Source: Candidatus Vogelbacteria bacterium RIFOXYD1_FULL_46_19
GTDB taxonomy: Bacteria; Patescibacteriota; Minisyncoccia; Phycocordibacterales; XYD1-FULL-46-19
Assembly (NCBI GenBank): GCA_001824825.1
Contig: MHTK01000002.1
Span: 6,020-70,019 of the forward strand
Direction of reading: 5' to 3'
Length of the DNA: 64,000 nucleotides
The position numbers were made by a program, and so were the translations under genes. Of this stretch, positions 4,967-59,422 are shown one piece after another; position 1 is the first letter of the stretch; every line of letters begins with the position of its first letter. The notes under the pieces are model-generated. The model was not told where the DNA came from. It worked only from the letters and a program-made list of their open reading frames with translations, and searched no databases.

Positions 4967-5091
4967 AGATTCTTTAAATTTAGACTTTAATAATTATAGA
5001 TTTACTCTTTTTAAGCCGAAAAGCAAGGTCTACTTGCTAGTTTTTTTAAGAAGCCCCCGCCGTCGAGTGACGTCGGGGGCGATAGGTGCTC

Positions 5092-6543: not shown

Positions 6544-7395
6544 ATGCCCCTCGTTCAACAATACCCCGCTCTACAGTGCCTGGCCACCGCCTGCGATAAT
6601 TTAAATATTCCGTATCGCTACCTAGACCGCCATCACAACTTTATTGAAGTTAAACCGGCCGGCTCTTTGTCTCTATTTTTTGCCAACGCCGCCACTCCCT
6701 TTAACTCTGATGTGGTAAACCGTATCTGTGCGGACAAAGAATTTACCTACCTCCTGCTAAACGAAGTGATCGCGATGCCGGCCACGCTTGGCTTTTTCAA
6801 CCCGGATTCACTCGATATTTACGAACTTTATCGCAATGTTAAATCAAGGACAGAAATTATTGAAACCATCCAACAAAATTTTTCTTGGCCCCTAATAATG
6901 AAACGGAACGCCGGCCAACAAGGCAACAATGTTTTTCTCTGCCCCACCGAAAAAGATTTACATCGCGCTCTAAAAAAAATCTACAATCCCAAGTCCCAGC
7001 AGTACGACTACGTGGCCCTGGCCCAAGAGTACATCAAACCAAAAGCGGAGTACCGCTTGATTTTCTTCCGTGAGAAACTTTTACTTGCTTATGAAAAAAG
7101 CATAGTCGGCGCCACCTTTAATGGCAATCTAAGCCCCCTACACTGGGACCAAGCCCAGGCAATACCAATTGAAGACCAAGCTCAGTTGGCCGCTTTAGCG
7201 GATTTCGCCCAACCTATTTTTGCGCCCTTGCCGGTCACTTTTGCCGGCTTAGACGTCATTGAAGACGAACAAGGTAAATTGTGGCTAATTGAAATCAATA
7301 CCCGGCCGGGCTTTAAATTTTTCATTCATTCCAACGGTGAACAACCCTTAATTGAGATGTATGAAAAAATTCTTCAGGCGATCTTGGCCCACTAA
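6544..7395 (+). CDS. ATP-grasp domain protein (RimK/GshB-like ligase, specificity unknown)
   Basis: 283 aa with ATP-grasp C-terminal motifs (KLWLIEINTRPGF) and a lysine-rich nucleotide-binding region. Confidence 0.62.
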   Translation: MPLVQQYPALQCLATACDNLNIPYRYLDRHHNFIEVKPAGSLSLFFANAATPFNSDVVNRICADKEFTYLLLNEVIAMPATLGFFNPDSLDIYELYRNVKSRTEIIETIQQNFSWPLIMKRNAGQQGNNVFLCPTEKDLHRALKKIYNPKSQQYDYVALAQEYIKPKAEYRLIFFREKLLLAYEKSIVGATFNGNLSPLHWDQAQAIPIEDQAQLAALADFAQPIFAPLPVTFAGLDVIEDEQGKLWLIEINTRPGFKFFIHSNGEQPLIEMYEKILQAILAH

Positions 7396-8607: not shown

Positions 8608-11600
8608 ATGAATGAAAATAATATTGAGTCTAATATTCCCAAACTGGATTACAATAATCTCCGGCTAACTCTTCACGACCTAACCCGAAAATTAAAAAAT
8701 TTACCAAAGCCTGACTTGTCGGGCTTTGGACCATCTAGAATTGAAGAAATTAAAAAACAATTAGAGAAACTCGCACCAGAAATTGAGGCCATAATATCTG
8801 ACCCGGCTATCAAATCCGAAAATAAAGAGCTTCTAAAAAATCAACTAAACAGAATCGAGGATAGATTAAATAAAACCTCTGACAATGAAACAAGCCCTTC
8901 AACCACTAAAGGCAGTGCAACAAAGGAAGAAAAGGAAGAGCAACTTGAAGTGGTGAAAAAAGCTTTTTTGAACGCTAAAGATATTATTGACACCCCAGAG
9001 GTAGACCCGGCCGATAAAAAGTCCGCAGTTGAAGCTTTCTATCAAGCTCGACAAGATTACTACCACCAAATGGAAGGAGGAGAAAAAGTGCCCGAAGAAT
9101 TAAAAGATGCCAACTTGCGTATTGCTAAAGTGGAAAAAGACCTGCAAACTCCCACCAATCAGGAATCCATTAAATCACCTGCAAAAACCAAACTAAAGCC
9201 AGATGAAATAACTCTAGAACCGGTCGACAAAACCGCCGGTAGGGCAATTAAATTTTCCGACACCGACCATCGAGAAATACAATCCGCCCTAAAACCAGAA
9301 ACCGAAACAGACAGTGCTCTTGATAGTTACTGGCGACTAGTAGAAGAAACGGCTAACCCCCAAGTACCCCCAACCATTCAAACACCGGAAGAACAAAAAC
9401 GTTCGAGGGGGCAGGTTAAAACCAATCAATTTGTCCAAGACCATCTCGGAATGCTATCACGTGCCGAAAGAGAAAAAATACCCTCAGGATTAAAACCTCA
9501 AGACCCAATTCAAGAACACCCGCCGGTAGTGGAGCCAGCGGCCACACTAGGGGCCGAGGCAACTCCTGTGTTAGTAGACAACGAGGAAAAAAAACCAGAC
9601 GAGCTGACTGCCTTGCTGGAAGAATCAAAGGTGCAAGAACAAGCGGAACTAGACAAAATTACTCAAGCCATCAGTGAAACTACCACTTTAGACGAACTTC
9701 AAACAGCGATCGATAACCTAGGTGGCTTGCAAGGAAGCGACTACTATTCATCGGAAGATCTGAAAAAGCAAATAGACCGTTATTTAATATCGTCAAATAA
9801 ATTCTTTTTAACTGGAGCCGGTGGCTTTCGCGACAAAATAGTGGAACTAGTAAAGCTAGATTCAACTAAAAGCTCAGAGGCCAAACTCCAGGAGCTCCCA
9901 GGATTTAAATTTAGAGACGGAGCAACAAGTACAGCCAGTAGCAATCAAGTAGAGCCAGCAACATCTGAGGTGGGTTCAGAAACAGAAGAAAAAACGGAAA
10001 AGGATGAAAACCTTCAAGACTTATTAGAAGCACTACTAGCTGAAGCTGATGATGAAAAAAATGCGTCTTTAACTCCAAACAACTTCTCCTCGACCAAATT
10101 ACCAACCCTAGAAAACAATGATGATAACACGGAGTTACCAGCTTTAGATCCAGTATTTGTCCAAGAAATGATGGCTAGCCTACCTCCAGAGGAAGTAGGT
10201 TCAGCCACCAACTTTGAAAGCTTGCCGACACCCACTCAAGAAAAAATTAAAGTAGGACTATACAATCTGGGCTGGCAGTTTAAAAAAACTAAAAGCGACT
10301 GGATGGCTCTGGCTCTTGAAAGTATGACCAGCAAGAAAGTTTCCGCTGACGAACTAAAAAATTTAAGCCCAGGCAAGCGTTTAGCCCACGGCTTAGCCGC
10401 CAGCTATCACCGCGATAGCCAGCAAGCCGAATCGCGAATGAGGGAAATAGCCCAGTTAAAAGCTAGGGGTGAAAGTACAAGTTTACTGAGGCATAAGCTA
10501 GGCAATGTAGGCCAACCTTTAAGCACACTTGTAAAAATCGGCCGCACTGTGGCTGACTTAACTGGGGTGGCGATCATTAATCCAACCCGATATGTTTTAG
10601 CCGCCAGTATGATGGCCGGACGAGTAGCGGAAGCTGGTAAAGAAGCTCGTTTTTCCAGTCAGATAACACTAAAGCGAGCTGGTGTAGAAAAGTATCAAAA
10701 CGAGCTTAATTTTGAAGAGCTGGCCTTTGGATCACTAAAAGAAAAATTTCAGCAATTTGAAAATTTTAAAAATCGTAAAAATCATTTACGAAAAATTGCT
10801 CGCGGTATCGCCGCAATGCCTAAAAGAACAACTGGTATGTCGGAAGAAGAAAAGACACAGTTCCAAGAGAATAAATTCACTGGCAATGAAGAACAACTAG
10901 ACTCAGTAAACATCGAAAATGCTTTGACTAAAGTGTCCGATTTTATTGCCGACGGCGTCCAAGGACTTTTACGTTTCGATACCCAACAAAACATTAACGC
11001 CATTGATAAGAAACTCCGTAAGTTAGAAACAAATAGCAAACTGACAGCCGAACAAAAAGAAGCGGTCAAACAAAAAATATTCAAGGCTCATAGCCGGCGA
11101 ATAAAAGATTTAGAAAGAATGACCAGTCGCTATGCCACCATTGATGTTTTGGCTCACACCGCGCGCACTTTAGAATTTGGCGCCAAAGCCACTACAAACA
11201 TTATGATGGTGGAAAGTTTACTGTTGGCGGCTGCCAATATTTACGATCACTTGTTACAGCAAACAGACGAAACAGTAGCCACCACTAATCAAATAGAACA
11301 AATTGAGAAAACCATAAGTGATGATTCACAATCTACCCCAGATGAAACCAATAAATCAACAGAAGATACCGGTCGTTTGTCCTACAACTACCTTTTACCA
11401 AGTGATGAAATGGAAACACAATCTGTCCCTGTTGCTAATGTCGGCTCAACACCAACAGAAAAATTAACAGCAGGTGACCCAGTAGATGTTGAACCTCAAG
11501 CTTCAAGCGAGAGGGTTATCCCACCTGTTTATCAAGAACTAGCCAAGTCAACCTCTCCAGCAGAAAGCGTCACCCCAGATGGAGAAAAACTACCCCTCCT

Positions 11601-12942
11601 CGAACAAACTGGGGCAGAAGTGTCCTATGGTGATAAAATCAGCGTCATTTATGACATCGGTCGCGGGGGCGACTTCGACTCACTCGACCAAGCTCTGCGC
11701 CGAATTGTGGTTCAAGAATACGACTTTAGTAGCGGTGACAAAATTTTAAGCCCAGTGGAAGCGGCTCAACTTGAAAATGTCTTGGCCAATGTCCGGGAGA
11801 TATTAGGCGGACGCACGATCGCCAGCCTCGGGCCTGATGACTTAAAAGGGGTAGCGGAATTTTCAGGTGGCAAACTCACTATTACCGACTACCAAGAATT
11901 TGATCAGAAAATTCTAAGCCCCTTATTTGAGCGAGCTAGCGAAAACATTACCGCCGACTCCCCGGCTGTAAAATTTGCTCAAGCTACTTCCATCGACAAA
12001 TGGCAAGAAATGTTAAGTCAACGGTTTACCTCAGACGACTATAAAGTGGCCACCAACTTCACCGAATCTCCAGCCAGCCCCGCTGTCATCGAGCCTGAAT
12101 CGGAAATGTCCAAAATAAACATCTCCACCAACTCAAGCATCCAACCCACCTCGGCTGAGGAAATTCTAATAAAAACCAAGGTTCCGGAAACACCAGCTGG
12201 TGAGCAAATTACACTTAAGGGCCCCGAAAGCTACAACTCGCCAGCCCCTACCGAAACTCCCCGTATCCCTGATAGTAAACTGATTGATCGAATAGCTGTC
12301 GAAGAAGCCATAGTAAATCTAGGTTACCGCTATAGCCTCCCCACTCCCTTAGCCAGAGCGGTTATGGAATTGGGGCTATCTGATCAGGTAGAGGGCTTAA
12401 CTGAAAGCGGAGTTGCGAAGCCCGGCAGTCAGTTTGATTTTCTGATCAAAATCTGTGGCCCTGATGGCTTTAGTCAAATCTTAAATGACTTAGGGCAAAT
12501 TGATCGTAATCAATTAAATATCTTTAATCAGCTTCACACCGACGGGGCCACTATCGAGCAAATTCGAAGCGCCATCAACTTTACCGATAAGATAAAGTGG
12601 GAGACCGGCCGAGAACTAGCTTTGGCGCGGGCCATCGCCTTCAATAAAACCGAATATTGGCAAGCTGCTTTGGGTAAGGATCTAGTCCCCAATGGGCCAC
12701 AAACAACGAGATTTACCAAAGACGGTGACTTAGTCTTAAAGCAAATTGAAGGACTGAAAGGATCTCTCATTATTGACCCCAACCGACAAAAAATAATGTT
12801 GACCAATCTATTCGACCGGAAGGGTATCAAACTTGAACCGGACCGCTATATTAGTTTTAAAGATAAACCAATTGCTGAGGCTCTAAATAAAGCCCGGGAA
12901 ATAGTGGCTAGCGCTCGCCTACGTGCTACCAAAGCGACCTAA
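8608..12942 (+). CDS. Giant acidic/lysine-rich low-complexity protein (1444 aa), hypothetical
   Basis: Single uninterrupted ORF of 4.3 kb. The product is E/K/Q/S/T-rich with coiled-coil-like segments, no signal peptide and no recognisable catalytic motif. Confidence 0.7.
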   Translation: MNENNIESNIPKLDYNNLRLTLHDLTRKLKNLPKPDLSGFGPSRIEEIKKQLEKLAPEIEAIISDPAIKSENKELLKNQLNRIEDRLNKTSDNETSPSTTKGSATKEEKEEQLEVVKKAFLNAKDIIDTPEVDPADKKSAVEAFYQARQDYYHQMEGGEKVPEELKDANLRIAKVEKDLQTPTNQESIKSPAKTKLKPDEITLEPVDKTAGRAIKFSDTDHREIQSALKPETETDSALDSYWRLVEETANPQVPPTIQTPEEQKRSRGQVKTNQFVQDHLGMLSRAEREKIPSGLKPQDPIQEHPPVVEPAATLGAEATPVLVDNEEKKPDELTALLEESKVQEQAELDKITQAISETTTLDELQTAIDNLGGLQGSDYYSSEDLKKQIDRYLISSNKFFLTGAGGFRDKIVELVKLDSTKSSEAKLQELPGFKFRDGATSTASSNQVEPATSEVGSETEEKTEKDENLQDLLEALLAEADDEKNASLTPNNFSSTKLPTLENNDDNTELPALDPVFVQEMMASLPPEEVGSATNFESLPTPTQEKIKVGLYNLGWQFKKTKSDWMALALESMTSKKVSADELKNLSPGKRLAHGLAASYHRDSQQAESRMREIAQLKARGESTSLLRHKLGNVGQPLSTLVKIGRTVADLTGVAIINPTRYVLAASMMAGRVAEAGKEARFSSQITLKRAGVEKYQNELNFEELAFGSLKEKFQQFENFKNRKNHLRKIARGIAAMPKRTTGMSEEEKTQFQENKFTGNEEQLDSVNIENALTKVSDFIADGVQGLLRFDTQQNINAIDKKLRKLETNSKLTAEQKEAVKQKIFKAHSRRIKDLERMTSRYATIDVLAHTARTLEFGAKATTNIMMVESLLLAAANIYDHLLQQTDETVATTNQIEQIEKTISDDSQSTPDETNKSTEDTGRLSYNYLLPSDEMETQSVPVANVGSTPTEKLTAGDPVDVEPQASSERVIPPVYQELAKSTSPAESVTPDGEKLPLLEQTGAEVSYGDKISVIYDIGRGGDFDSLDQALRRIVVQEYDFSSGDKILSPVEAAQLENVLANVREILGGRTIASLGPDDLKGVAEFSGGKLTITDYQEFDQKILSPLFERASENITADSPAVKFAQATSIDKWQEMLSQRFTSDDYKVATNFTESPASPAVIEPESEMSKINISTNSSIQPTSAEEILIKTKVPETPAGEQITLKGPESYNSPAPTETPRIPDSKLIDRIAVEEAIVNLGYRYSLPTPLARAVMELGLSDQVEGLTESGVAKPGSQFDFLIKICGPDGFSQILNDLGQIDRNQLNIFNQLHTDGATIEQIRSAINFTDKIKWETGRELALARAIAFNKTEYWQAALGKDLVPNGPQTTRFTKDGDLVLKQIEGLKGSLIIDPNRQKIMLTNLFDRKGIKLEPDRYISFKDKPIAEALNKAREIVASARLRATKAT

Positions 12943-24295: not shown

Positions 24296-24385
24296 TTAAA
24301 GAACCTTTTCGATTCCTGACCGGAAACAAATCAGTTTGTTTCTTATCGGGAATCTTTCCCTACGGGAACGGTATAGGTTTTCCAT
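24296..24385 (-). CDS. Candidate 29-aa leader uORF upstream of ABC-F (MENLYRSRRERFPIRNKLICFRSGIEKVL)
   Basis: The ATG is preceded by AGGTGA at -6. It lies in the 240-nt leader between tRNA-His and the ABC-F start and contains a perfect 8-bp hairpin (GAAACAAA-ctga-TTTGTTTC). This is a speculative call. Confidence 0.25.
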   Translation of the reverse strand: MENLYRSRRERFPIRNKLICFRSGIEKVL

Positions 24386-24486
24386 TTTTTCACCTAACGG
24401 CTCAAAAATATGGAAGAACCTTTTCGATTCCCGATGGGCACTGATTTACCCAAAAAGAAAAACCCCTAGATAGAGGTTTTTCTTTT

Positions 24487-25552: not shown

Positions 25553-25794
25553 AAAACCTCCTTGGCCACGGAAAGCCGTTTAGAAATCCAACGAATCTTC
25601 TCTTATTATACCATAGTTAATATATAAAGCAAGGAGCTCGGGAGAGGACTTTCCCCCAACGGGGGCTGGTACTTTTCGTTTCATTCGCTTAACAGCTCAT
25701 TCTTATCGAAAAGTCTTTCAAGTCCCCACGCGACTAAAGCAGTTTAGTCGCTTCCCGAGCACAAATAAAAGCACCCGGTAGGTGCTTTTATTTG

Positions 25795-27248: not shown

Positions 27249-27322
27249 GCGCGCTTAGCTCAGTTGGCTAGAGCATCTCGTTTACACCGAGAGGGTCGGG
27301 GGTTCGAGTCCCTCAGCGCGCA
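27249..27322 (+). tRNA. tRNA-Val (TAC), CCA not encoded
   Basis: Acceptor GCGCGCT/AGCGCGC, D-arm GCTC-AGTTGGCTA-GAGC, anticodon stem TCTCG/CGAGA with loop TTTACAC, and T-loop TTCGAGT. Confidence 0.85.
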
Positions 27323-27326
27323 CAAG

Positions 27327-27352
27327 AAAAGGCTGCTTCGGCAGCTTTTTAT
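27327..27352 (+). terminator. Rho-independent terminator after tRNA-Val
   Basis: GGCTGC-ttcg-GCAGC hairpin followed by TTTTTATT. Confidence 0.7.
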
Positions 27353-27475
27353 TGTGCGCACTAGGAAGTGCACTGCTGCACTTCCGTGAGGGACTCGAAA
27401 GGAGTTTCGTTATCAAGCACCTGCCAAAGGTGCCTTGATCGAAACTCACCAGCCCCCGTAGGGGGAGAGTCCCTC
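27353..27475. repeat. tRNA-Val 3'-flanking module: hairpin-interrupted inverted copy of the tRNA 3' end, hairpins, degenerate direct copy of the T-arm
   Basis: GTGCGCAC (27354-61) plus a 26-nt hairpin insert plus GAGGGACTCGAA (27388-99) is the reverse complement of the tRNA-Val 3' 22 nt, split at the acceptor/T-stem junction. GAGTCCCTC recurs at 27466-74. Confidence 0.6.
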
Positions 27476-27655
27476 GATTCCCAAAATCAAAAGCCCAAAG
27501 CTTTCGCTTCAGGACTTTTGATTTTACAGCAACGCTGAGAGACTCGAACCAAGTTTCCACGAAGCCTGATTTTTTACTCGAGTTATTTTGCTTGTCGCCT
27601 TCGCGATCCTTCTGGTGGACTGCATCACGCCGTAGGTTCGCAGTAGCGAACCTAC

Positions 27656-27825
27656 GGCGGAGGGGGCTAGATTCTAAACTTACAGTTTCAGTCCCCTTGT
27701 TGGATAAATTTTTCGTCCTTCGGACTTAAATTTATGCTCAACAAAGCTTCGAATCCCTCCTTCCGCTTTGCGAAACCGTCCTTCAGACGGCTTCCGCAAA
27801 AAAGCTTTCGGGTCTCGCTTTTTTG
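27656..27825. repeat. tRNA-Ser 3'-flanking module: degenerate direct copy of the tRNA 3' end plus trailer hairpin
   Basis: GGCGGAGGGGGCTAGATTCTAAACT (27656-80) matches TGCGGAGGGGGCGAGATTCGAACTCG of the gene (27824-49). There is a hairpin CGCAAAAAAGC...GCTTTTTTGCG at 27796-27830 and a perfect 12-bp hairpin at 27612-27643. Confidence 0.6.
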
Positions 27826-27912
27826 CGGAGGGGGCGAGATTCGAACTCGCGATGCCCTTGCGGACATGCTGGTTTTCAAGACCAGTGCTTTAAACCACTC
27901 AGCCACCCCTCC
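27826..27912 (-). tRNA. tRNA-Ser (TGA), long variable arm, CCA not encoded
   Basis: Acceptor GGAGGGG/CCCCTCC, anticodon stem CTGGT/ACCAG with loop CTTGAAA, an 18-nt variable arm and T-arm GCGAG-TTCGAAT-CTCGC. Confidence 0.8.
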
Positions 27913-27960
27913 AAACAACCAGCGATATTAACGCCGATTGAATTTAACTTATGCTTAAAC

Positions 27961-28284
27961 CTAAACCGAACTAGTAGTGTTGTGCTCGGCACTCACTGTC
28001 TCACTCGAAGAAACTTGAGCTGGCGTTGGTACTGACTGCTGCGTAGTCACTGGCCTGGCTGATGTTTTCCAACCACTAAAAAATTTGGCCACAAACACCA
28101 GGTAAATTATTTCTAAGATACCAGCGGTTTGTAAAATCAGCATGGCAATATACCAGCCCTTATCCCCGCGGCGCGCGGCTTGCCACAAAGCCAAACCCTT
28201 CCACACTGTGGACCACACAATTAAAACCAGTATCACCCCCCAAAAAAGCGAAGCAAAAACTAAAATGTCGTTGGGATTTTCCAT
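27961..28284 (-). CDS. Small membrane protein (two TM helices) with Ser/Thr-rich tail, hypothetical
   Basis: 107 aa hydrophobic ORF with coding-like composition. Confidence 0.45.
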   Translation of the reverse strand: MENPNDILVFASLFWGVILVLIVWSTVWKGLALWQAARRGDKGWYIAMLILQTAGILEIIYLVFVAKFFSGWKTSARPVTTQQSVPTPAQVSSSETVSAEHNTTSSV

Positions 28285-28380
28285 AACTAAATACTAGCAG
28301 TTTCCCTCAACAAATCAACAGCCTATTTTCAACTACCTCTCATACTAGATCAGCCAGAACTGATGCTATATACTGGTTTA

Positions 28381-28767
28381 ATGCGCTTACTTGGAATTGA
28401 TTATGGATCCAAAAAAATCGGCCTGGCCCTCTCCGACTCCACCGGACGCTTTGCCTCCCCGCTAGAGGTAATACCAAGCTCGCTGACCACCGCCGAAACT
28501 ATTGCCAAAATTTGTCAGCAAGAGGAAGTAACCAAAATCGTGATAGGCCACTCCTTAAATTATGCCAACGAGCCCAACTTGATTGTGGCTGATAGCGAGA
28601 AACTGGCCGAGAAACTACGAGTCTTAACCGGACTAGAAGTAATTTTTGAGCCAGAAGTCCTAACCACTCGCGAAGCCGAAAGAACAGTAGGAAAAGATGA
28701 GCTACTCGACGCTAGGGCGGCTGCTTTAATTTTAAAAAGTTATATTGATCGCCACCACCATGACTGA
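28381..28767 (+). CDS. ruvX: Holliday-junction resolvase-like RNase H-fold protein RuvX/YqgF
   Basis: LGIDYGSKKIGLALSD N-terminal motif. The start was moved to the internal Met (MRLLGIDYG). Confidence 0.8.
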   Translation: MRLLGIDYGSKKIGLALSDSTGRFASPLEVIPSSLTTAETIAKICQQEEVTKIVIGHSLNYANEPNLIVADSEKLAEKLRVLTGLEVIFEPEVLTTREAERTVGKDELLDARAAALILKSYIDRHHHD

Positions 28768-29356
28768 AAAATTAAATATTTATAAAGAAAAAATGCGCAG
28801 CTGGGCCAACAACCGCGCCGACCATAAACAGACCAGCTGGTGGCTGGCCCTTCTCTCTTTTTCCGAAAGCTCTTTTTTTCTAGTACCGCCAGATGTTTTT
28901 TTGATCGGGATTTTAATGACTAGTCGGCGTTTTGCCTACTACGCTTTTATTACTACTATTTCTTCCGTTTTAGGCGGGGCCTTTGGTTACTTGATCGGGA
29001 TATTCTTTTTTGACACCATCGGCCAAACTTTAGTCGACCTTTATGGCCTACAAGATGAAATGGCTAAAGTCGGACAGCTCTTTAACAATAACGCCCTTGT
29101 CGCTATTTTCCTGTCAGCTTTTACACCCATTCCCTACAAAATATTCACTATCTCGGCCGGCTTTTTCCATATTAACTTTATAATTTTTATGCTGGCCTCC
29201 CTCCTGGGCCGCGGTTTACGATTTTTCCTTGAAGCTTACGCGATGAAACTATGGGGTAAAACTGTAGGTAAAATGATTTACCACTACTTTAACTTATTTA
29301 CTTTCATTGTCGGGGCTTTGGTGGTTTTGGGTATTTTCTACTTTTACTACTTTTAA
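28760..29356 (+). CDS. DedA/YqaA (SNARE-associated, VTT domain) membrane protein
   Basis: Polytopic protein with VTT-domain-like motifs (FLVPPDVFLIGI...). The start was chosen at MTEKLN, overlapping the ruvX stop. Confidence 0.68.
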   Translation: MTEKLNIYKEKMRSWANNRADHKQTSWWLALLSFSESSFFLVPPDVFLIGILMTSRRFAYYAFITTISSVLGGAFGYLIGIFFFDTIGQTLVDLYGLQDEMAKVGQLFNNNALVAIFLSAFTPIPYKIFTISAGFFHINFIIFMLASLLGRGLRFFLEAYAMKLWGKTVGKMIYHYFNLFTFIVGALVVLGIFYFYYF

Positions 29357-29436
29357 CACTCACCACTCTACTGGCTACCGTTTTTAAATTTAGATATTGC
29401 AGTTGGTCAGCAAGTAAGGTATTTTAAGCGTATTCT

Positions 29437-29508
29437 GCCCTTGTAGTTCAATGGATAGAACAGCGGACTTCTAAGCCGTTAATGGGGGTTCGATTCCCTC
29501 CAGGGGCA
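29437..29508 (+). tRNA. tRNA-Arg (TCT) probable; one A·G mismatch at the loop-closing pair of the anticodon stem
   Basis: Acceptor GCCCTTG/CAGGGGC, D-arm GTTC-AATGGATA-GAAC, anticodon loop CTTCTAA and T-loop TTCGATT. CCA is not encoded. Confidence 0.65.
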
Positions 29509-29509
29509 C

Positions 29510-29553
29510 AAAATAAAATTTCACAGGATTATATTCCTGTGAAATTTTATTTT
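29510..29553 (+). terminator. Perfect 19-bp hairpin terminator after tRNA-Arg(TCT)
   Basis: AAAATAAAATTTCACAGGA-ttatat-TCCTGTGAAATTTTATTTT. Confidence 0.6.
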
Positions 29554-30100
29554 GTGCCCCTGAGCAAGCAAACTGCTTGGCTTGCGTGAGGGAATCGAAA
29601 GACTTTTCGTTACCAAGCACCTGATAAAGGTGACTTGGTCGAAAAGTACCTGCCCGCCATCGCTATGCTCAGGCATTGGCAGGCGGGCCAGCGAGTGTAG
29701 CTCGAGATTCCCTCTAGAACTTGGCGTCCGGGAATCGAAGAAGCTGAGCTTGTCGCAACGAGGCTGTAGGCCGAAGTGAGACGCGAAGCCTGTACTGTTC
29801 CTGCTGTGCCCGCTAGAGCTTTAGCGTAAGCGGGTAATGAAAGATTCCCGATGTGTGTAAAGGAACCGAAAGACTTTTCGCTGCCGAAACTTATCGCAGT
29901 GAGCGTAGCGAAACGAGATGTGAAGCCTGTACCGTTTAGGTTTTACTCTCCTTGGCTCGGAAATGAGAAATATTACTTTCTCATTTCACTCGCTCTACAT
30001 CAGCAATAAAAACGAAAGCCGCTTAGGGGTTAACCAAAGCGGCTGAATCACATTTGATGATATATAAACCAAGGTCGGACCTTGGGAAAGAAATTGGGGG
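29554..30100. repeat. Expanded tRNA-Arg(TCT) 3'-flanking repeat field (split inverted 3'-end copy, multiple T-arm fragments, repeated ~100-nt units, many hairpins), non-coding
   Basis: GTGCCCCTG (29554-62) plus a 25-nt hairpin plus GAGGGAATCGAA (29588-99) is the exact reverse complement of the tRNA 3' 21 nt, split at the acceptor/T junction. ATTCCCTC, GGGAATCGAA and GATTCCCGA fragments follow. There are two GAAGCCTGTAC(T/C)GTT-containing repeat units at 29780-29940. 710 bp contain no ORF longer than 65 aa. Confidence 0.55.
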
Positions 30101-30220: not shown

Positions 30221-31396
30221 CTAACCTCGAACTTGCATTCTTTGGAATTCTCGCTTGAAGCCGTCATCAGGGTCGTCCACCTTGGATGAAGGTAGCTGAA
30301 TTACGGCCAGTTTGCCATTTCCGTCGGCTTTTTCTTCAATCCTCCTCTGCTCGCGCCGACGACGATTCCTTTCAAACTGTTGAGGTGATGCCGATTGCCA
30401 CACTCCTCGATCATCTTGGTAAACGACTTCTCCGTTCATTAGGGGATATTGATTACCCTCAGAGTCAGTATATACATGATCCTGCACCACAGTTTCCAAC
30501 TCTGCCAATTTTGCCATTTGTTCCTCCACCTCGACTTTCTTTGCTTCTAGTTCTTGGTGGAGGCGCAACTTTTCAGTTGCTATACGAGATGTTTCTTCTC
30601 TCCCTTCTCGCAGTTTTGAGTTAACATCCCGTAAGCGCTGGTGGGCAAGTTCTGTCACATGAACTCGGCTGAGTTTGGGTCGACCTGAGGACTGGTGATT
30701 CTCTGCTCCAAAGGAAGATTGCGCCGGTTCACGGCGCCACCAGGCCACCACTAGTAACGAAAGTACCAACAACAGCCAAACTAGGCCAGTGGTAAGATTT
30801 TGTTCAAACCAGCTTACCAGGCCGATCTTTTTTTGAACCGAAGCCGATTGTAGTTGCAACAGACTCAAGGCCTGCTCCAGTTTTCCATTAACTACTACCA
30901 TCTCCTCCTGGAGCTGTTGTATGTCGGCCATCCCTTTCGCGACAGCCGGAGTGAGTTTTTGAACCACACTAGCCGAGACTTGTTCAACCGACTCGTTACC
31001 AAGCGTAGTGCTCGTGGCATTTTGGAGACTCTCGATCATTTTCACAATCCGATCGAGTTTCTCAGGAATAACAGGGATGGGAGAAATCTCAACCTCGGCG
31101 GTAGGCACCGTGGCAACTACAAAGTCAGCTGGTACTGGCCGCTCGTACGTTCCTGCCAACATTTTGTAGAATGCCTTTTCGGCGTTCTTCATGTGATGCA
31201 GTTTAGCAAAAGCAACCTGGTACTCTTCGGGGTCTGGCCAAACCTCGCGAACAAGGTCATTGGCCTGATAATCTTGGATTACCCAGGGGCCTTGGCCCTG
31301 GACCATTTCAAACTCTCCGAGGCCAAGATCAGCCTCGGCGGTTACTGCTGTCGCCATGACCAGCAGCACCATTAGCATCCATGCGACGCGCTTCAT
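30221..31396 (-). CDS. Secreted/membrane-spanning coiled-coil protein, hypothetical (anomalously GC-rich)
   Basis: Signal peptide MKRVAWMLMVLLVMATAVTAEA (start chosen there), one central TM helix and a C-terminal charged coiled-coil. GC is about 50% against about 40% background. Confidence 0.5.
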   Translation of the reverse strand: MKRVAWMLMVLLVMATAVTAEADLGLGEFEMVQGQGPWVIQDYQANDLVREVWPDPEEYQVAFAKLHHMKNAEKAFYKMLAGTYERPVPADFVVATVPTAEVEISPIPVIPEKLDRIVKMIESLQNATSTTLGNESVEQVSASVVQKLTPAVAKGMADIQQLQEEMVVVNGKLEQALSLLQLQSASVQKKIGLVSWFEQNLTTGLVWLLLVLSLLVVAWWRREPAQSSFGAENHQSSGRPKLSRVHVTELAHQRLRDVNSKLREGREETSRIATEKLRLHQELEAKKVEVEEQMAKLAELETVVQDHVYTDSEGNQYPLMNGEVVYQDDRGVWQSASPQQFERNRRRREQRRIEEKADGNGKLAVIQLPSSKVDDPDDGFKREFQRMQVRG

Positions 31397-31575
31397 AGTA
31401 AGACACCTCCTTTCTATATCTTCCACCCAAAATCGATAATGTCTAAAACTACAGGTTTTAGACATAAGCTTCACATCATCTATGTGTAAAAGAACTCCGC
31501 TGTTACCAACGATTTCTACTTTAGAAACTTACATAAAATTAGAAATATGTCAATACCACACCAGACTACCCGTTA

Positions 31576-33898: not shown

Positions 33899-34072
33899 CA
33901 CGAATGAAATGGGTGGATCTGACCAGGATTCGAACTCGAAAGGGGTCGGGAAAACTGTAGTTTTCCCGTGGAGGAAGGCAGAGCGAAGCTCGTCGGAAAA
34001 CCGTCCGCGTGTCGCTGAAGCTTTAGCGGAGGCACAGGGTTTCCGAAAGGTGAGATTCCTGATGAGAGCACC
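33899..34072. repeat. tRNA-Arg(GCG) 3'-flanking module
   Basis: Inverted T-arm copy CCAGGATTCGAA (33923-34) is followed by CTCGAAAGG and then the hairpin GGGAAAACTGTAGTTTTCCC. A degenerate direct copy GAGATTCCTGATGAGAGCACC lies at 34052-72. Confidence 0.55.
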
Positions 34073-34197
34073 ACTCTATTCGTACAGTACCTAGACTAAA
34101 ATTTGGCGACGGCCAAATTTTGAGTCGAAAGAAAATCCTGGCAAGCCCCCCCTACCAGTAGCTAATTACCAACCTAGTAGGTAGCAAACAAAAAACC

Positions 34198-35239: not shown

Positions 35240-36271
35240 ATGGGTCGCTTAACTATTTCAAATATTACAAATAACGAGCCGTGGCCAAATAAAGCTGAGG
35301 CCGAGGCACACTTTACCCAATCTGAGCTTTTTGGTCAGTGGCAAATTGAGCGCGGTTTTAAAGTACGCCGCTTGGTCTTAAAAGACAACGACCGGCCCAT
35401 ATTATGGTGGCAAGCCCTTACTGCTCCCCTAATAAGACGTCACACTCAAATCTATATTCCACACGGACCGATTGTTTTAGACCCCTCCGATTTGAACCCA
35501 ACTGTAATAAAGTTATTTAAAGAGGAACTCTTTAAACTGGCCCGAGAAGATAAAGCGGTCTTTGTCCGTCTTGATCCCCAAATCAAAGACTGGACCAAGA
35601 GTGCCCTAAACAAAAATGGCTTTAAGACCGCTCCGGCCTTTGCTGCCCACTCAACTCTAACCCAGCCTCGCTACGAGTGGATTATGGATTTAATCGGCAG
35701 TGAAACTGATTGGTTTAACCGTATGTCTAAAGACACACGCTACTCTATTCGTACCGCCCAGAAACGCGGCACGGTAACGGAAATCATTAACGAAAACTTA
35801 ACCAGTGAACTCAATAACTTTTACCAACTTGTCCTTGAGACCAGCAAGCGAAACAACTTCCGCCTTCACCCTAAGTCTTATTATGAAAAAGTTTTGAGTG
35901 AAACCAGCCGGAATCAGAGCGGCTTTATCGTGAAAGCCTCTTTCAACGGCATTCCCCTAGTCATGAACTTGATCACCACCGGTAGTCCCACCGCCCTTCA
36001 CGTTTTTGGTGGCTCGACGACCGTCCATCGTGACCAGCTAGCTTCCTACTTAGCTCACTGGGCCGGCTTTATTGAAGCCAAGCGCCAAGGAGCCACGACT
36101 TATAGTTTCGGCGGGATTAGTTTCGGTGAAGATCAAAATCCTTCCTGGGTGGACTTAACCGCTTTTAAACAAAAGTTCCCCGGCCACATCAAAGATTATG
36201 GCCCCTTGTATGATCTCCCTATTTCCAGGCTATGGTATTATGCCTATGTCACCGCAAAAAAATTCCGCTAA
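35240..36271 (+). CDS. FemAB-family peptidoglycan peptide-bridge aminoacyltransferase-like protein
   Basis: 343 aa with a FemABX-like two-GNAT-lobe architecture. The call rests on overall sequence resemblance only. Confidence 0.55.
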   Translation: MGRLTISNITNNEPWPNKAEAEAHFTQSELFGQWQIERGFKVRRLVLKDNDRPILWWQALTAPLIRRHTQIYIPHGPIVLDPSDLNPTVIKLFKEELFKLAREDKAVFVRLDPQIKDWTKSALNKNGFKTAPAFAAHSTLTQPRYEWIMDLIGSETDWFNRMSKDTRYSIRTAQKRGTVTEIINENLTSELNNFYQLVLETSKRNNFRLHPKSYYEKVLSETSRNQSGFIVKASFNGIPLVMNLITTGSPTALHVFGGSTTVHRDQLASYLAHWAGFIEAKRQGATTYSFGGISFGEDQNPSWVDLTAFKQKFPGHIKDYGPLYDLPISRLWYYAYVTAKKFR

Positions 36272-40884: not shown

Positions 40885-41106
40885 TGCCCCGTGCAAGATT
40901 CTGTCCCTACCTGCCCGCCAGCGCCTAAGCCAGCAGGGCGACTCGCCTGCCATGCAAGGTACGAACGGGTACCCCGCCCTGTGCACAGGGCGGGGTCTTT
41001 CGAATCCTGACGCAAGCCAAGTCCTAAAGCCGTCCGGACTCGGAGTAGGCCAGTTGACTTGCTCACGGGGCACAAAATAAAAACGCCTAGCGGCGTCTTC
41101 ATTTTG
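40885..41106. repeat. tRNA-Lys 3'-flanking module
   Basis: Direct copy TGCCCCGTGCAAGATTC (40885-901) matches 16 of 17 positions of the gene's TGCCCCGTGCAGGATTC (41107-23). There is an inverted T-arm fragment TTTCGAATCCTG (40999-41010), a hairpin CCGCCCTGTG-ca-CAGGGCGG, and a 15-bp perfect inverted repeat CACGGGGCACAAAAT (41064-78) / ATTTTGTGCCCCGTG (41101-15) that includes the tRNA acceptor end. Confidence 0.6.
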
Positions 41107-56733: not shown

Positions 56734-57840
56734 TTAACGATTAACCGGCATAATTATATAAGAAAAACTTTTATTTTCTGTGCCTTGAATTAAAAGTGGA
56801 CGATTAGGTTCCGTCATTCCAATTAATAAATTTAAGGCCGGAATAGATTGAAATGACTCTAAAATATAACGAGCATTATAGTGAGCGGAAAAATCATTAC
56901 CCTCTATTTTAGCTTTAATTGTAGCCGTACTTTCACCAATATCCGAACTGGCTGAATAAATTATAATCTGTTCTTTAGCGGCATCTACATCTAGTTTAAT
57001 TTGATTAAATTTACCGGAAAAAATATTGGCCATTTTTAAAACTTGTCCCAAATCATCTTTACTTAAAGTGATAGTGGAAGTAGAAGTTTTGGGCATTATT
57101 TGCCGATAATCCGGATAAATACCATCAATCAATCTTGAGGTTAAATGAATTCCAACACTAGTAATAGATAATTGGTTACTGTCCGAACATAATTCTAATT
57201 CACCCTCTTCCCCTTCAAATACTTTTATAATCTCAGCGGCATTTTTTAAAGGAATAATCAGTCGGAAATCAACATCCTTATTTTGATTTGAAATTGTTAA
57301 CTTTTTTTCTGCCAATCTAAAGGAATCAGTAGCCACAAAAATTAATTCATTATTATTCTGGTAGATATAAACACTGGAAATTTCAGGTTTAATATCAGAT
57401 ACCGCCGCAGCATAAATAACAGATTTAAGTCCATAAACTAAATCGGTATTTTTTAACTTAAGTTTATTAGTGGTTGATATTTTAGGAATCAGTGGAAAAT
57501 CTTCATATTCTTCACTCTTTATAACCGTGTTATAAGTACTCGTTTTAATTAGTAAATTATTATTCTGTAACTCAACAGTTATTTTATCTTCATCTTTTAA
57601 ATTAGTTAGAAAATTACTTAGAGTAGTGGGATTACAAGAAGTCATTCCTTCTTCTAAAACCTTAGCCGGCAACTCCACTTCTAGACCAATTTCTAAGTTA
57701 GTCGACTTAATTACTAAGTTATTCTTTTTAACCTCTAAAATAAGGTTCTTTAAAACCGGTAAAGATAAATTATGAGAAGTAGCTCTTTCGGCGATTAGGA
57801 CAGCTTTCTGAAGTTTTTGTTTAGAGCATTCTATTTTCAT
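56734..57840 (-). CDS. dnaN: DNA polymerase III beta sliding clamp
   Basis: 368 aa with a three-domain clamp architecture, immediately downstream of dnaA. Confidence 0.9.
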   Translation of the reverse strand: MKIECSKQKLQKAVLIAERATSHNLSLPVLKNLILEVKKNNLVIKSTNLEIGLEVELPAKVLEEGMTSCNPTTLSNFLTNLKDEDKITVELQNNNLLIKTSTYNTVIKSEEYEDFPLIPKISTTNKLKLKNTDLVYGLKSVIYAAAVSDIKPEISSVYIYQNNNELIFVATDSFRLAEKKLTISNQNKDVDFRLIIPLKNAAEIIKVFEGEEGELELCSDSNQLSITSVGIHLTSRLIDGIYPDYRQIMPKTSTSTITLSKDDLGQVLKMANIFSGKFNQIKLDVDAAKEQIIIYSASSDIGESTATIKAKIEGNDFSAHYNARYILESFQSIPALNLLIGMTEPNRPLLIQGTENKSFSYIIMPVNR

Positions 57841-58060
57841 ATTTTAAAAAAGTAGAGCTATTAAGGTTGTGGATAGGTGGATAAGTTACTTTAAGGTTGA
57901 TAATTAAGGAAAATTTTATAACTTAAATTGTTTAATTTGGGGATAAAGCATTGGATGAGTTGGGATTAACTTTTTCATTTTTTATTATTAGACATTAATC
58001 CCAACTTTAATCTTCTTTTACTTCTGACTTATACCCAAGTTAATCCACATAATTTATTGT
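57841..58060. promoter_or_regulatory. Candidate oriC in the dnaA-dnaN intergenic region
   Basis: AT-rich 220 bp with clustered DnaA-box-like 9-mers (TGTGGATAG, GGTGGATAA, TGGGGATAA, TAATCCACA) and a T/A-rich putative unwinding stretch (TTTTTCATTTTTTATTATTAGACATTAAT). Confidence 0.5.
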
Positions 58061-59422
58061 TTAATTATTACTATATAGTTGTGATCTAATTTGTTCTATT
58101 TCTTGACCAAGTAAAGAGTCGGTTTTAGAGTCTTTTTTAATCTTCTCGTAGGCGTGAATAACTGTAGTATGATCTCGACCACCTAATTTTTGACCAATAT
58201 AAGGGTAGGAGGTGTTAAAGTCTTCTCGCAAAATATACATAATTATTTGACGCGGTTTTACTACCTCCTTTCGCCTAGTTTTCTCATAGAGAGTTTTTTC
58301 ATCCACACTGTAAAAATTAGCAATAGTTTTTATCACATCCTTATAAGAGATAGACTTTTTGGGCTTTATATTGCTTTTTAAGAGATGTTTAACCTCAGCT
58401 AAGCTTATTTCCTTCTTCTTAGCTTGAGCTTGGACAATAATTGATTTTAAAGTGCCTTCCAACTCTCTAATACTATCTTGAACCACTGAGGCTATATACT
58501 CTAAAACCTCGTCCGAGACTGGGGTGTTCAGGAAATTAGCCTTATTTTTTAAAATTGCTAAGCGGGACTCGTAGTCCGGTTTACTTATATCCACTATCAT
58601 TCCCCCTTCAAACCGAGACCGTAGTCGATCTTCTAAATGTTCTATATATTTAGGTGGTTGATCGGAGGAAAAAATAATTTGCTTGTTATTCTCATAAAAA
58701 TGATTAAAGAGATGAAACAATTCTTCCTGAGTTTTCTCTTTATTAGAGAAGAACTGAATATCATCCATAATAATCAGATCATATTTGCGATATTTTTCCT
58801 TAAACAGGTTTACTTTGTTGTTTAAAATAGAATTAACACAATCAATAGTGAAATTTTCCGAAGTGGTGTAAAAAACCCTCTTATTAGTGTTTAAACGGCT
58901 AATTTGGTTGCCAACTGCTTGTAAAAGATGGGTTTTTCCCACTCCAGTAACCCCGTAAATATATAGCGGGTTGTAATTCATCCCTGGGTTTTTAATTACC
59001 GCCTGGGAAGCGGCGTAAGCCACCTCGTTAAAAGAGCCCACCACGAAAGATTCAAAGGTGTATTTAGGGTTTAAATTACTATCCTGATTGATGTAGAGCT
59101 CATTTAGCCCTAAATCCGAAGAACTATGACTAGGAGCCTGGGTGGGAGCGGGATCGAGGGGTGGTTTGTCATCCCTTTTTACTATTATATATTCTAAACT
59201 TCTAACATTAGGCTCTATTTCCCTTAGGGCTTTTAAAATAAACTTGTGATATTTAGCTTTTAACCAGTCTTTAACGAAGGTGTTGGGAGTACTTAAAAAA
59301 ACCATCCCGTCGTCTAATTTATAAATGTAAGTGTTTTTAAACCAAGTGCCGAAGTTAGCTTTGGAAATATTTAACTCAATCTGAGCTAAGGCATTTTCCC
59401 AAAGTTGTTTATTTTCGACCAT
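58061..59422 (-). CDS. dnaA: Chromosomal replication initiator protein DnaA
   Basis: AAA+ Walker A GVTGVGKTHLL, Walker B LIIMDDIQF, sensor motifs and a C-terminal DNA-binding domain (GGRDHTTVIHAYEKI). Confidence 0.95.
   Translation of the reverse strand: MVENKQLWENALAQIELNISKANFGTWFKNTYIYKLDDGMVFLSTPNTFVKDWLKAKYHKFILKALREIEPNVRSLEYIIVKRDDKPPLDPAPTQAPSHSSSDLGLNELYINQDSNLNPKYTFESFVVGSFNEVAYAASQAVIKNPGMNYNPLYIYGVTGVGKTHLLQAVGNQISRLNTNKRVFYTTSENFTIDCVNSILNNKVNLFKEKYRKYDLIIMDDIQFFSNKEKTQEELFHLFNHFYENNKQIIFSSDQPPKYIEHLEDRLRSRFEGGMIVDISKPDYESRLAILKNKANFLNTPVSDEVLEYIASVVQDSIRELEGTLKSIIVQAQAKKKEISLAEVKHLLKSNIKPKKSISYKDVIKTIANFYSVDEKTLYEKTRRKEVVKPRQIIMYILREDFNTSYPYIGQKLGGRDHTTVIHAYEKIKKDSKTDSLLGQEIEQIRSQLYSNN

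Follow-up and report, generated by a model that had tools for sequence, protein, structure and literature searches.

Modules framed by inverted and direct copies of the adjacent gene's 3' end form an apparently undescribed family behind tRNA and tmRNA genes

Genes for transfer RNA (tRNA) and transfer-messenger RNA (tmRNA) are reportedly classic targets of integrases. Islands and prophages integrated there are flanked by a direct repeat of the target, of which the proximal copy keeps the gene intact, and they can form tandem arrays. Here we describe a family of small modules lying behind the same genes, starting from tRNA-Val(TAC) and tRNA-Arg(TCT) in a window of 64,000 nucleotides (nt) from Candidatus Vogelbacteria bacterium RIFOXYD1_FULL_46_19 (contig MHTK01000002.1, positions 6,020 to 70,019). 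In the following, S denotes the last 20 nt of the tRNA (T-loop, 3' strand of the T-stem, 3' strand of the acceptor stem and discriminator), antiS the reverse complement of S, and S' a sense copy located downstream. The modules share with islands and prophages the target genes, the flanking repeat, the intact proximal copy and the tandem arrays. Unlike them, they measure only 130-250 nt, have neither integrase nor cargo, and contain an inverted copy of the target as well as a conserved multi-hairpin interior, and one and the same scaffold is found with frames for more than 33 tRNAs. The direct repeat of the tRNA 3' end around an insert, a hallmark of integration, is accompanied by nothing resembling the second hallmark, an integrase with cargo between the repeats: the repeats of the modules lie 43-288 nt apart and enclose no open reading frame (ORF).

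Inverted target-like arms that form a hairpin mimicking the duplex target occur in the folded single-stranded attP of CTX-phi and in integron attC, and the integrated order predicted for CTX-phi (site, inverted site, loop, site) equals the order S, antiS, interior, S' seen here. These systems, however, act at one fixed target (dif or attI) and possess a known recombinase as well as a replicon, whereas the arms of the modules are retailored for each gene. Antisense elements within the target's own precursor are known from cis guides such as the box C/D RNA in the intron of archaeal pre-tRNA-Trp and the split H/ACA guides, and in H/ACA RNAs a hairpin also divides the guide into two arms. In contrast to these, the modules are bacterial, have no C/D or ACA boxes, leave no target dinucleotide unpaired, extend their complementarity into the trailer and possess a sense duplicate; pairing of the target is uninterrupted, with the unpaired A and GT located on the guide side, and an ACA box at a fixed distance was not found. 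A coaxial acceptor/T helix, a tRNA-identical 3' strand with discriminator and an arm at the 7/49 junction are shared with tRNA-like structures (the tRNA-like domain of tmRNA, YrlA Y RNAs, viral tRNA-like structures) and with RNase P external guide sequences, but the module has a branched interior in place of the T-loop, no D-loop, a sequence borrowed from the neighbouring gene and no Rfam match. Like the intervening sequences of 23S rRNA and the REP/REPIN palindromes, the modules are patchy, non-coding, near-perfectly paired, multi-copy and terminator-adjacent, yet neither of those elements takes its sequence from the neighbouring gene or shows tRNA specificity. Unlike in a miniature inverted-repeat transposable element, the inverted arms vary with the host gene, and the flanking repeat consists of 17-20 nt of the target. 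Rfam 15 gave no match to the modules of the window at the gathering score and only spurious miRNA-type matches to the palindromes at E<=10, and no description of the layout was found in the searchable literature. Because the defining feature of each compared system fails, the modules are apparently an undescribed kind of element, real and widespread, for which a function and a mechanism can only be proposed.

The Val and Arg(TCT) loci follow the same order, namely the tRNA, a terminator composed of A-tract, hairpin and T-tract, an anti-acceptor segment, an A followed by a 22-nt hairpin (hairpin A) and GT, and an anti-T segment ending in GAA (Table 1). The hairpin between tRNA and module has the GC-rich stem and T-run of an intrinsic terminator. 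The original prediction had noted this parallel layout from the two loci, and its coordinates and sequences were borne out. The antisense copy, described there as an exact reverse complement, is exact at Arg(TCT) (21/21), while Val agrees at 20/21 positions with one A-for-G in the acceptor part; the insert, put at 25-26 nt, measures exactly 25 nt at both loci. A repeat search of the window returned perfect inverted arms of 13/13 (Val) and 12/12 (Arg(TCT)), and a 31-nt palindrome of 97% identity that runs from the Arg(TCT) acceptor strand through the terminator into the antisense copy. Past the antisense copy, the two trailers are homologous, with the first ~130 alignment columns strongly conserved. 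All stem differences between the Val and Arg(TCT) versions of the following hairpin B are compensated, and its core pattern occurs twice in the window as against 0 occurrences expected. The split antisense copies of Val and Arg(TCT) form the 5' arms of non-coding modules that belong to an apparently undescribed family, located immediately behind tRNA and tmRNA genes and oriented as the gene is.

Downstream of all seven tRNAs of the window (Val, Arg(TCT), His, Leu, Ser, Arg(GCG) and Lys) a module was found on the gene's own strand, and ARAGORN and Rfam agree that there are exactly seven tRNAs; RF00005 and ARAGORN detected no cloverleaf in the modules at E<=10, only the seven true tRNAs. The S' copies, the modules at the five other tRNAs and the tandem degenerate modules behind Val, Arg(TCT) and His go beyond what had been seen before. 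Leu and Lys have split antisense copies as well, with S' segments of 16-17 nt, the Ser module is a diverged version of the layout, and the Arg(GCG) module comes without a terminator and without an anti-acceptor. Because of the degenerate tandem modules, the ~500-nt spacer between Val and Ser and ~700 nt 3' of Arg(TCT) are filled with modules. The sense copy behind Arg(GCG) contains CCA, which is not encoded in the tRNA-Arg(GCG) gene itself.

Table 1. Positions of tRNA genes and module parts in the window.
Feature	Position (nt)	Strand	Description
tRNA-Val(TAC)	27249-27322	+	S = 27303-27322; ARAGORN; Rfam tRNA 68.8 bits
Val terminator-type hairpin	27327-27350	+	A-tract and T-tract on its flanks; apex of the S/antiS palindrome; inverted repeat 22 nt, 86%
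Val anti-acceptor	27353-27362 (GTGCGCAC(T) at 27354-27362)	+	mirrors acceptor 3' strand, discriminator and first trailer bases; 1 mismatch
Val hairpin A, GGAAGTGCA-CTGC-TGCACTTCC	27364-27385	+	9-bp stem, CTGC loop; flanks A and GT; exactly at acceptor/T boundary of antiS
Val anti-T, GAGGGACTCGAA	27388-27399	+	exact reverse complement of 27303-27314 (T-loop and T-stem 3' strand); inverted repeat 13 nt, 100%
Val hairpin B	27401-27447	+	long, irregular; 87% identity to Arg copy, compensatory changes
Val ACC junction, then hairpin C (CCCCC-GTA-GGGGG)	27448-27465	+	ACC junction conserved
Val S', GAGTCCCTC	27467-27475	+	equals tRNA-Val positions 57-65; pairs with anti-T, closing the module; acceptor part lost
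Val second, degenerate module	27483-27550	+	hairpin, then unsplit antisense copy CGCTGAGAGACTCGAACC, 17/18 to tRNA-Val 3' end
tRNA-Arg(TCT)	29437-29508	+	S = 29489-29508; ARAGORN, Rfam
Arg(TCT) terminator-type hairpin	29510-29553	+	with acceptor strand and anti-acceptor a 31+31-nt palindrome, 97%
Arg(TCT) anti-acceptor, GTGCCCCTG	29554-29562	+	exact reverse complement of acceptor 3' strand, discriminator and first trailer base
Arg(TCT) hairpin A, GCAAGCAA-ACTGC-TTGGCTTGC	29564-29585	+	flanks A and GT
Arg(TCT) anti-T, GAGGGAATCGAA	29588-29599	+	exact reverse complement of 29489-29500; inverted repeat 12 nt, 100%
Arg(TCT) hairpin B; ACC; enlarged hairpin-C region	29602-29647; 29648-29650; 29653-29705	+	
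Arg(TCT) S', GATTCCCTCTAG	29706-29717	+	11/12 identity to tRNA-Arg positions 57-68; direct repeat
Arg(TCT) two further degenerate modules	CCGGGAATCGAA and body 29728-29801; AAAGGAACCGAA and body 29859-29940	+	both of '...GAAGCCTGTACYGTT' type; direct repeats
tRNA-His module	24345-24441	-	unsplit 19-nt exact antisense copy, hairpin B, hairpin C, S'; second degenerate module 24308-24342
tRNA-Leu(GAG) module	25636-25762	-	anti-acceptor, hairpin A, anti-T with G.U, hairpin B, ACC, hairpin C, S' = 16-nt exact copy
tRNA-Ser(TGA) module	27630-27793 (gene 27826-27912)	-	hairpin-A-like hairpin, GGAGGGATTCGAA, hairpins B and C, S' GAATCTAGCCCCCTCCG 27658-27674, 3' hairpin
tRNA-Arg(GCG) module	33923-34073	+	exact anti-T; interior differs (GGGGTCGGG...CCCGTGGAGGAAG); S' terminating in GCACCA
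tRNA-Lys(TTT) module	40885-41073	-	exact 10-nt anti-acceptor, enlarged hairpin A, anti-T, hairpins, S' 16/17 (change keeps G.U pair)

The reverse-complemented 3' ends that we found behind the other five tRNAs of the window recur in relatives. Among 80 Paceibacteria loci, retrieved via ribosomal protein L19 and thus unselected for the module, an antisense copy of 12 nt (T-loop and T-stem 3' strand, <=1 mismatch, <=300 nt downstream) was present behind 39 of 274 tRNAs, compared with 0 upstream and 3 when tRNAs and flanks were swapped; a sense copy lay downstream of 30 of the 274, with 0 in the upstream and swapped controls. Occupancy is patchy: at least one module was found in 35 of 75 loci and none in the other 40, and 7/7 tRNAs are occupied in the window as against 3/6 in its closest relative. 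The antisense copy was split in 14 cases, contiguous in 8 and reduced to the anti-T part in 24. At least four types of interior recur across genomes and behind different tRNAs, and the same tRNA in related genomes may carry different interiors.

A metagenome scan that specified the loop and flanks of hairpin A plus TYGAA and nothing else yielded at least 120 loci; the following counts hold among the 127 matches listed, 114 of which had enough upstream sequence to be judged. A tRNA on the same strand lay <=400 nt upstream in 104/114 (median gap 46 nt), at least 33 anticodon classes were represented, and several of the remaining matches follow tmRNA-like 3' ends. The anti-T segment matched the upstream tRNA at 12/12 positions in 70 of the 104 and with one mismatch in 22 more, the anti-acceptor at 8/8 in 42/104, and the register of the split was constant (offset 1, single A spacer) in 89/104. 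S', judged over 12 nt of the T-stem and acceptor 3' strands, was exact in 43/94 and had <=2 mismatches in 58/94, whereas the swapped control always gave >=3. With the split at the acceptor/T boundary in more than 100 independent tRNA contexts among the matches listed, the common mechanism that the original prediction had argued for from two loci is upheld against chance. The host contigs of the listed matches have 28-70% GC, so the family probably reaches beyond Patescibacteria. Complete small modules were seen behind tRNA-Ser in the high-GC contigs L278, L319 and L340. In the metagenome loci L256, L263, L270 and L272, hairpin-A modules lie behind putative tmRNA (ssrA) 3' ends, read by eye, and the antisense arm complements the putative 3' end; L272 also has a gene for a tyrosine recombinase of 306 aa ~1.1 kb downstream of the tmRNA module.

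The antisense copy corresponds to the Watson-Crick complement of the 3' strand of the gene together with the genomic trailer. Where the 5' strand of the tRNA departs from the Watson-Crick complement of the 3' strand, antiS equals the complement at 44/49 positions and the 5' strand at 2/49, and is therefore not a duplicated tRNA 5' half. In genes without an encoded CCA, the three bases preceding the anti-acceptor exactly complement the genomic trailer in 44/57 cases and read TGG in 0/57. AntiS thus mirrors the gene or its primary transcript and not the mature tRNA, which rules out a function as primer-binding site and argues against pairing in trans with the mature tRNA. At positions where S and S' differ, antiS mostly agrees with S (135 positions versus 19), but at 19/24 of the positions at which both copies deviate from S, antiS is complementary to S'. 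CCA is not encoded in most tRNA genes at the metagenome and genome loci; behind them come the trailer CAA and an A-tract, and this A-tract is mirrored by the T-tract of the terminator even at module-free sites.

The stems of the modules show compensatory changes. The RNAalifold consensus of 11 modules of the window type comprises 34 pairs, 25 of them with compensatory double changes, in hairpin A (9 bp), the closing helix between anti-T and S' (9 bp), hairpin B and hairpin C; one-sided stem changes are rare in this alignment, in which GU, CGAAAG, ACC and the GUA loop are invariant and unpaired. Covariation of the insert hairpin, which the original prediction had put forward as a check, was evident in hairpin A with 35 distinct 5-nt stem cores and 616/635 Watson-Crick pairs among the matches listed. 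The hairpin-C motif is ~21-fold enriched downstream of tRNAs, with 21 distinct stems, and its window copies of that form are confined to the downstream flanks of tRNAs. G.U pairs are nearly missing from hairpin A (8/635 among the matches listed) and hairpin C (1/265), which, together with covariation that goes almost always from one Watson-Crick pair to another, is unusual for selection at the RNA level and hints at DNA-level pairing or templated palindromes. An isolated module folds on itself with RNAfold z-scores of -4 to -7, and closes itself because S' pairs with antiS; in the predicted structure, antiS:S' with hairpin A has the topology of an acceptor/T minihelix with one arm at the 7/49 junction and no T-loop. 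In the minimum free energy fold of the read-through transcript, by contrast, the 3' end of the tRNA pairs with antiS, the terminator stands at the apex and hairpin A is the third arm, whereas with a complete S' the 5' strands of the tRNA pair with S' instead.

Insertion-like behaviour is seen between relatives: the filled tRNA-Val site of locus L003 equals the empty one of L001 plus one unit of 159 nt. S', a second terminator and the flank of L003 align with the tRNA end, terminator and flank of L001, and a terminator resembling those of the window is present at the empty L001 site. The unit is also multiplied in tandem, exactly and as a whole in L022 and with two module types, both framed for tRNA-Arg(GCG), in L001. 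Truncation occurs as well: in L242 a truncated module abuts a photolyase gene, and in L236 (GC 0.70) the tRNA-Ser module is broken just past the start of hairpin B by an ORF that, judged by eye from its translation, resembles a helix-turn-helix protein of the XRE type. The modules of two tRNA-Ser isoacceptors in L241 have an identical hairpin A and the same start of the interior but gene-specific frames, so interiors are transferred between loci or made uniform among them, and it is the frames that remain specific to each gene. The original prediction had also considered a site-specific recombination event with its crossover at the acceptor/T junction. Insertion-like units flanked by direct repeats of the tRNA 3' end were indeed found, but the junction bears no mark of a crossover, and the antisense copy is unsplit in many modules (8 contiguous versus 14 split).

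Further observations concern tRNA-like sequences near such sites. About 300-385 nt past the first match in L241 (Ga0134128_10001287) lies a tRNA-like sequence, GGGGATATGGCAGAGAGG...GTCCCCGCCA, with a 37-nt stretch identical to part of the adjacent tRNA-Ser module, on its interior and S' side; this points to recombination of a module with a class II tRNA-like gene. In L001, the closest relative, tRNA-Ser is followed by a displaced tRNA-Ser 3' half reaching from the variable arm to the 3' end (flank 4968-5055), and tRNA-Arg(TCT) by a foreign tRNA-like 3' fragment (flank 6926-6998); these fragments are the usual traces that earlier integration at tRNA genes has left in the lineage.

We tentatively favour the explanation that the module is a non-coding, non-autonomous and probably mobile insertion element, selfish or domesticated, which is framed by hairpins and specialised for the 3' flanks of tRNA and tmRNA genes. 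Such an element would nest in a safe site behind these genes. Each module consists of a constant scaffold, in which hairpin A and GAA are followed by an interior from a small exchangeable set and by hairpin C with its GUA loop, and of a frame copied from the host gene, namely an inverted (antiS) and usually also a direct (S') copy of its last ~17-20 nt. AntiS has two predicted partners. With S' it forms a closed, minihelix-shaped module in which hairpin A occupies the place of the anticodon and D arms; with the 3' end of the gene itself it forms one long palindrome across the terminator. This architecture, its match to the adjacent gene, its recurrence, the compensatory changes, the filled and empty sites and the tandem multiplication are observed, whereas mobility, the writing of the frame and any role in the cell are inferred. 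We propose that S' occupies and neutralises the antisense arm, so that the tRNA would be left undisturbed. As the module mirrors its neighbour gene with a hairpin at the acceptor/T boundary, a process that reads the target and writes its complement would be required. The frame may be templated from the DNA or the primary transcript of the host gene, at insertion or later, with fold-back or template switching across the terminator palindrome, or a recombinase acting on the folded hairpin as in CTX-phi, as candidate routes.

Several points weigh against such an element. We know of no mechanism that writes an inverted and a direct copy of the target into a scaffold with the hairpin exactly at the acceptor/T boundary. 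Among the 29 ORFs of the window that were scanned, none encodes a recombinase, reverse transcriptase or transposase, no free or circular copy of a module was seen, and three pattern scans of viral contigs gave chance matches only, the seven matches to the first pattern being one unrelated high-GC phage terminator. Most modules are preceded by a strong-looking terminator, and the tRNA-sense strand is the better fold in 47/49 modules, which may only reflect G-richness. Finally, the tRNA-aware position of the hairpin, the conserved unpaired GAAAG, ACC, GUA and CUGC and the occupancy of 7/7 tRNAs would fit a host-selected RNA as well. It is also conceivable, if doubtful, that the module is a self-programming element, a constant RNA/DNA scaffold with two to three slots filled by the inverted and direct 3'-end copy of the adjacent tRNA or tmRNA gene. 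If true, this would mean an unfamiliar target-templated insertion or homing at tRNA-like genes, or else a cis antisense control of read-through tRNA precursors, which would act on the fate of these precursors in ultra-small bacteria.

A possible but somewhat improbable alternative to the insertion element is a cis-acting RNA of the host. The module would be transcribed by read-through from the tRNA promoter, obligatory at the terminator-free Arg(GCG), and its predicted tRNA-like minihelix would be open to recognition by tRNA-processing enzymes such as RNase P, RNase Z or the CCA-adding enzyme. Either a small structured RNA would be released, or the module could work as a switch or in quality control, with antiS catching the tRNA 3' end of read-through transcripts. 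Consistent with this reading are the position of hairpin A at the very point where nucleotides 8-48 branch off the minihelix of a genuine tRNA, the constant co-orientation of module and gene, the occupancy of all window tRNAs, and the conserved unpaired motifs beside covarying stems. S' often has the full acceptor strand and discriminator, sometimes CCA, and a terminator of its own, and the read-through folds take S' as an alternative 3' strand of the tRNA. A canonical-looking terminator before most modules speaks against this RNA, however, and the module is not essential, since its presence is patchy even between close relatives. S' is often decayed, as behind Val and Arg(TCT), the T-loop, on which RNase P and the CCA-adding enzyme largely rely for recognition, is absent, the scarcity of G.U pairs is unusual for an RNA under selection, and the mirror runs into a non-functional trailer.

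That the modules are scars or miniatures of integrase-mediated integration, with S as attL from the element, S' as attR, the original 3' end having been displaced, and antiS as part of a folded single-stranded attP, appears unlikely to us. A discrete unit flanked by direct repeats of the tRNA 3' end and strictly Watson-Crick stems are consistent with it, and so are the ordinary displaced tRNA 3' fragments behind Ser and Arg(TCT) in the relative L001. By analogy with the CTX-phi mechanism, the order S, antiS, loop, S' would be expected from integration of a single-strand hairpin attP, and a tyrosine recombinase gene lies 1.1 kb from the tmRNA module of L272; this recombinase is, however, of XerC/D size and may be housekeeping. 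The unit of merely 130-250 nt is gene-free, and conservative recombination is unable to re-template antiS and S' for more than 33 targets. Moreover, S' begins at position 57 while antiS reaches 54-56 too, and the viral-contig scans returned no single-stranded replicon or phage with a module.

A very improbable reading is that of an antisense or guide RNA acting in trans, or a primer-binding site, which pairs with the 3' half of the mature tRNA in a three-way junction. Such a junction had been suggested in the original prediction, and it does appear in the fold of the read-through transcript, with the insert hairpin as the third arm. Perfect complementarity across 20-21 nt, the hairpin-split topology recalling H/ACA guides and a cofold 8-12 kcal/mol better than the separate folds would agree with pairing in trans; this predicted gain is small, though, and the tRNA has to be unfolded for it. 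The continuation of the complementarity into the trailer (44/57), never into CCA (0/57), largely refutes the reading, and S' competes within the same molecule for the antisense arm. The junction also leaves no target nucleotides unpaired, in contrast to the two in a pseudouridylation pocket, the 29 window ORFs contain no reverse transcriptase and, to our knowledge, bacteria have no H/ACA proteins of the Cbf5 type. It can practically be dismissed that the palindrome arose by chance, that the minus strand encodes a tRNA or pseudo-tRNA, or that the tRNA gene was simply duplicated locally: read on the minus strand, the arm does look like a tRNA-like 3' end beside a bidirectional terminator, but chance is excluded by the downstream-versus-control counts in the related and metagenome sets, neither ARAGORN nor Rfam finds a tRNA at the modules, antiS is not copied from the tRNA 5' strands, and interiors are common to different tRNAs.

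Other identities were rejected as well. A minus-strand tRNA-like gene with introns disagrees with a layout that tracks the orientation of each tRNA and an antiS that follows the complement of the 3' strand. A group II (class C) intron, hinted at by GTGCG at the 5' end, was discarded with a homology of ~130 nt only, no domain V and no Rfam match. For a group I intron, there is no RF00028 match and the interior is too small; the group I introns described in tRNAs of Patescibacteria sit in the anticodon loop, differing from the modules (PMC13011429). Hammerhead and other small ribozymes, RNase P-like RNA, signal recognition particle RNA, 6S RNA and Y RNA gave no Rfam match at E<=10. A primer-binding site for mature tRNA was rejected by the bases in front of the anti-acceptor (TGG 0/57, trailer complement 44/57), a phage origin by the viral-contig scans with their chance matches, and a local helper gene by the housekeeping nature of the 29 window ORFs scanned.

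Few bacterial loci have been studied as well as the genes for tRNA and tmRNA, yet directly behind them lies a large family of structured modules, with at least 120 metagenome loci from one narrow pattern. If the process that writes the complement of the target is a mechanism of mobility, it would be a new route by which DNA or RNA homes to tRNA genes; if it belongs to host RNA biology, it would add a new layer to the handling of tRNA precursors in Patescibacteria. In either case, the modules account for 'empty' intergenic stretches of 150-700 nt in very compact genomes and can mislead the annotation of tRNAs and att sites.

The window belongs to a chromosome of Patescibacteria (Paceibacteria, Candidatus Vogelbacteria-like), with a ribosomal protein L19 76% identical to that of MHTJ01000002. 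The 29 ORFs scanned are housekeeping genes, dnaA and dnaN included; as the latter two lie side by side (56734-59422), the window adjoins a probable replication origin. Relative to the genes for pseudouridine synthase and L19, tRNA-Val (27249-27323) is inverted in comparison with L001 and L003, while L002 and L004-L006 have the orientation of the window. With tRNA-Ser and tRNA-Arg(TCT) rearranged too, breakpoints of rearrangement fall at the tRNA/module loci. Two ORFs of 1444 aa and 417 aa (window 8608-12942 and 30221-31474) have no Pfam domain at E<=0.001. A gene of the FemAB family, i.e. for an aminoacyl-tRNA-dependent peptidoglycan transferase (35240-36271), adjoins a Mur ligase gene and is mentioned here because enzymes of this type use the acceptor arm of tRNA.

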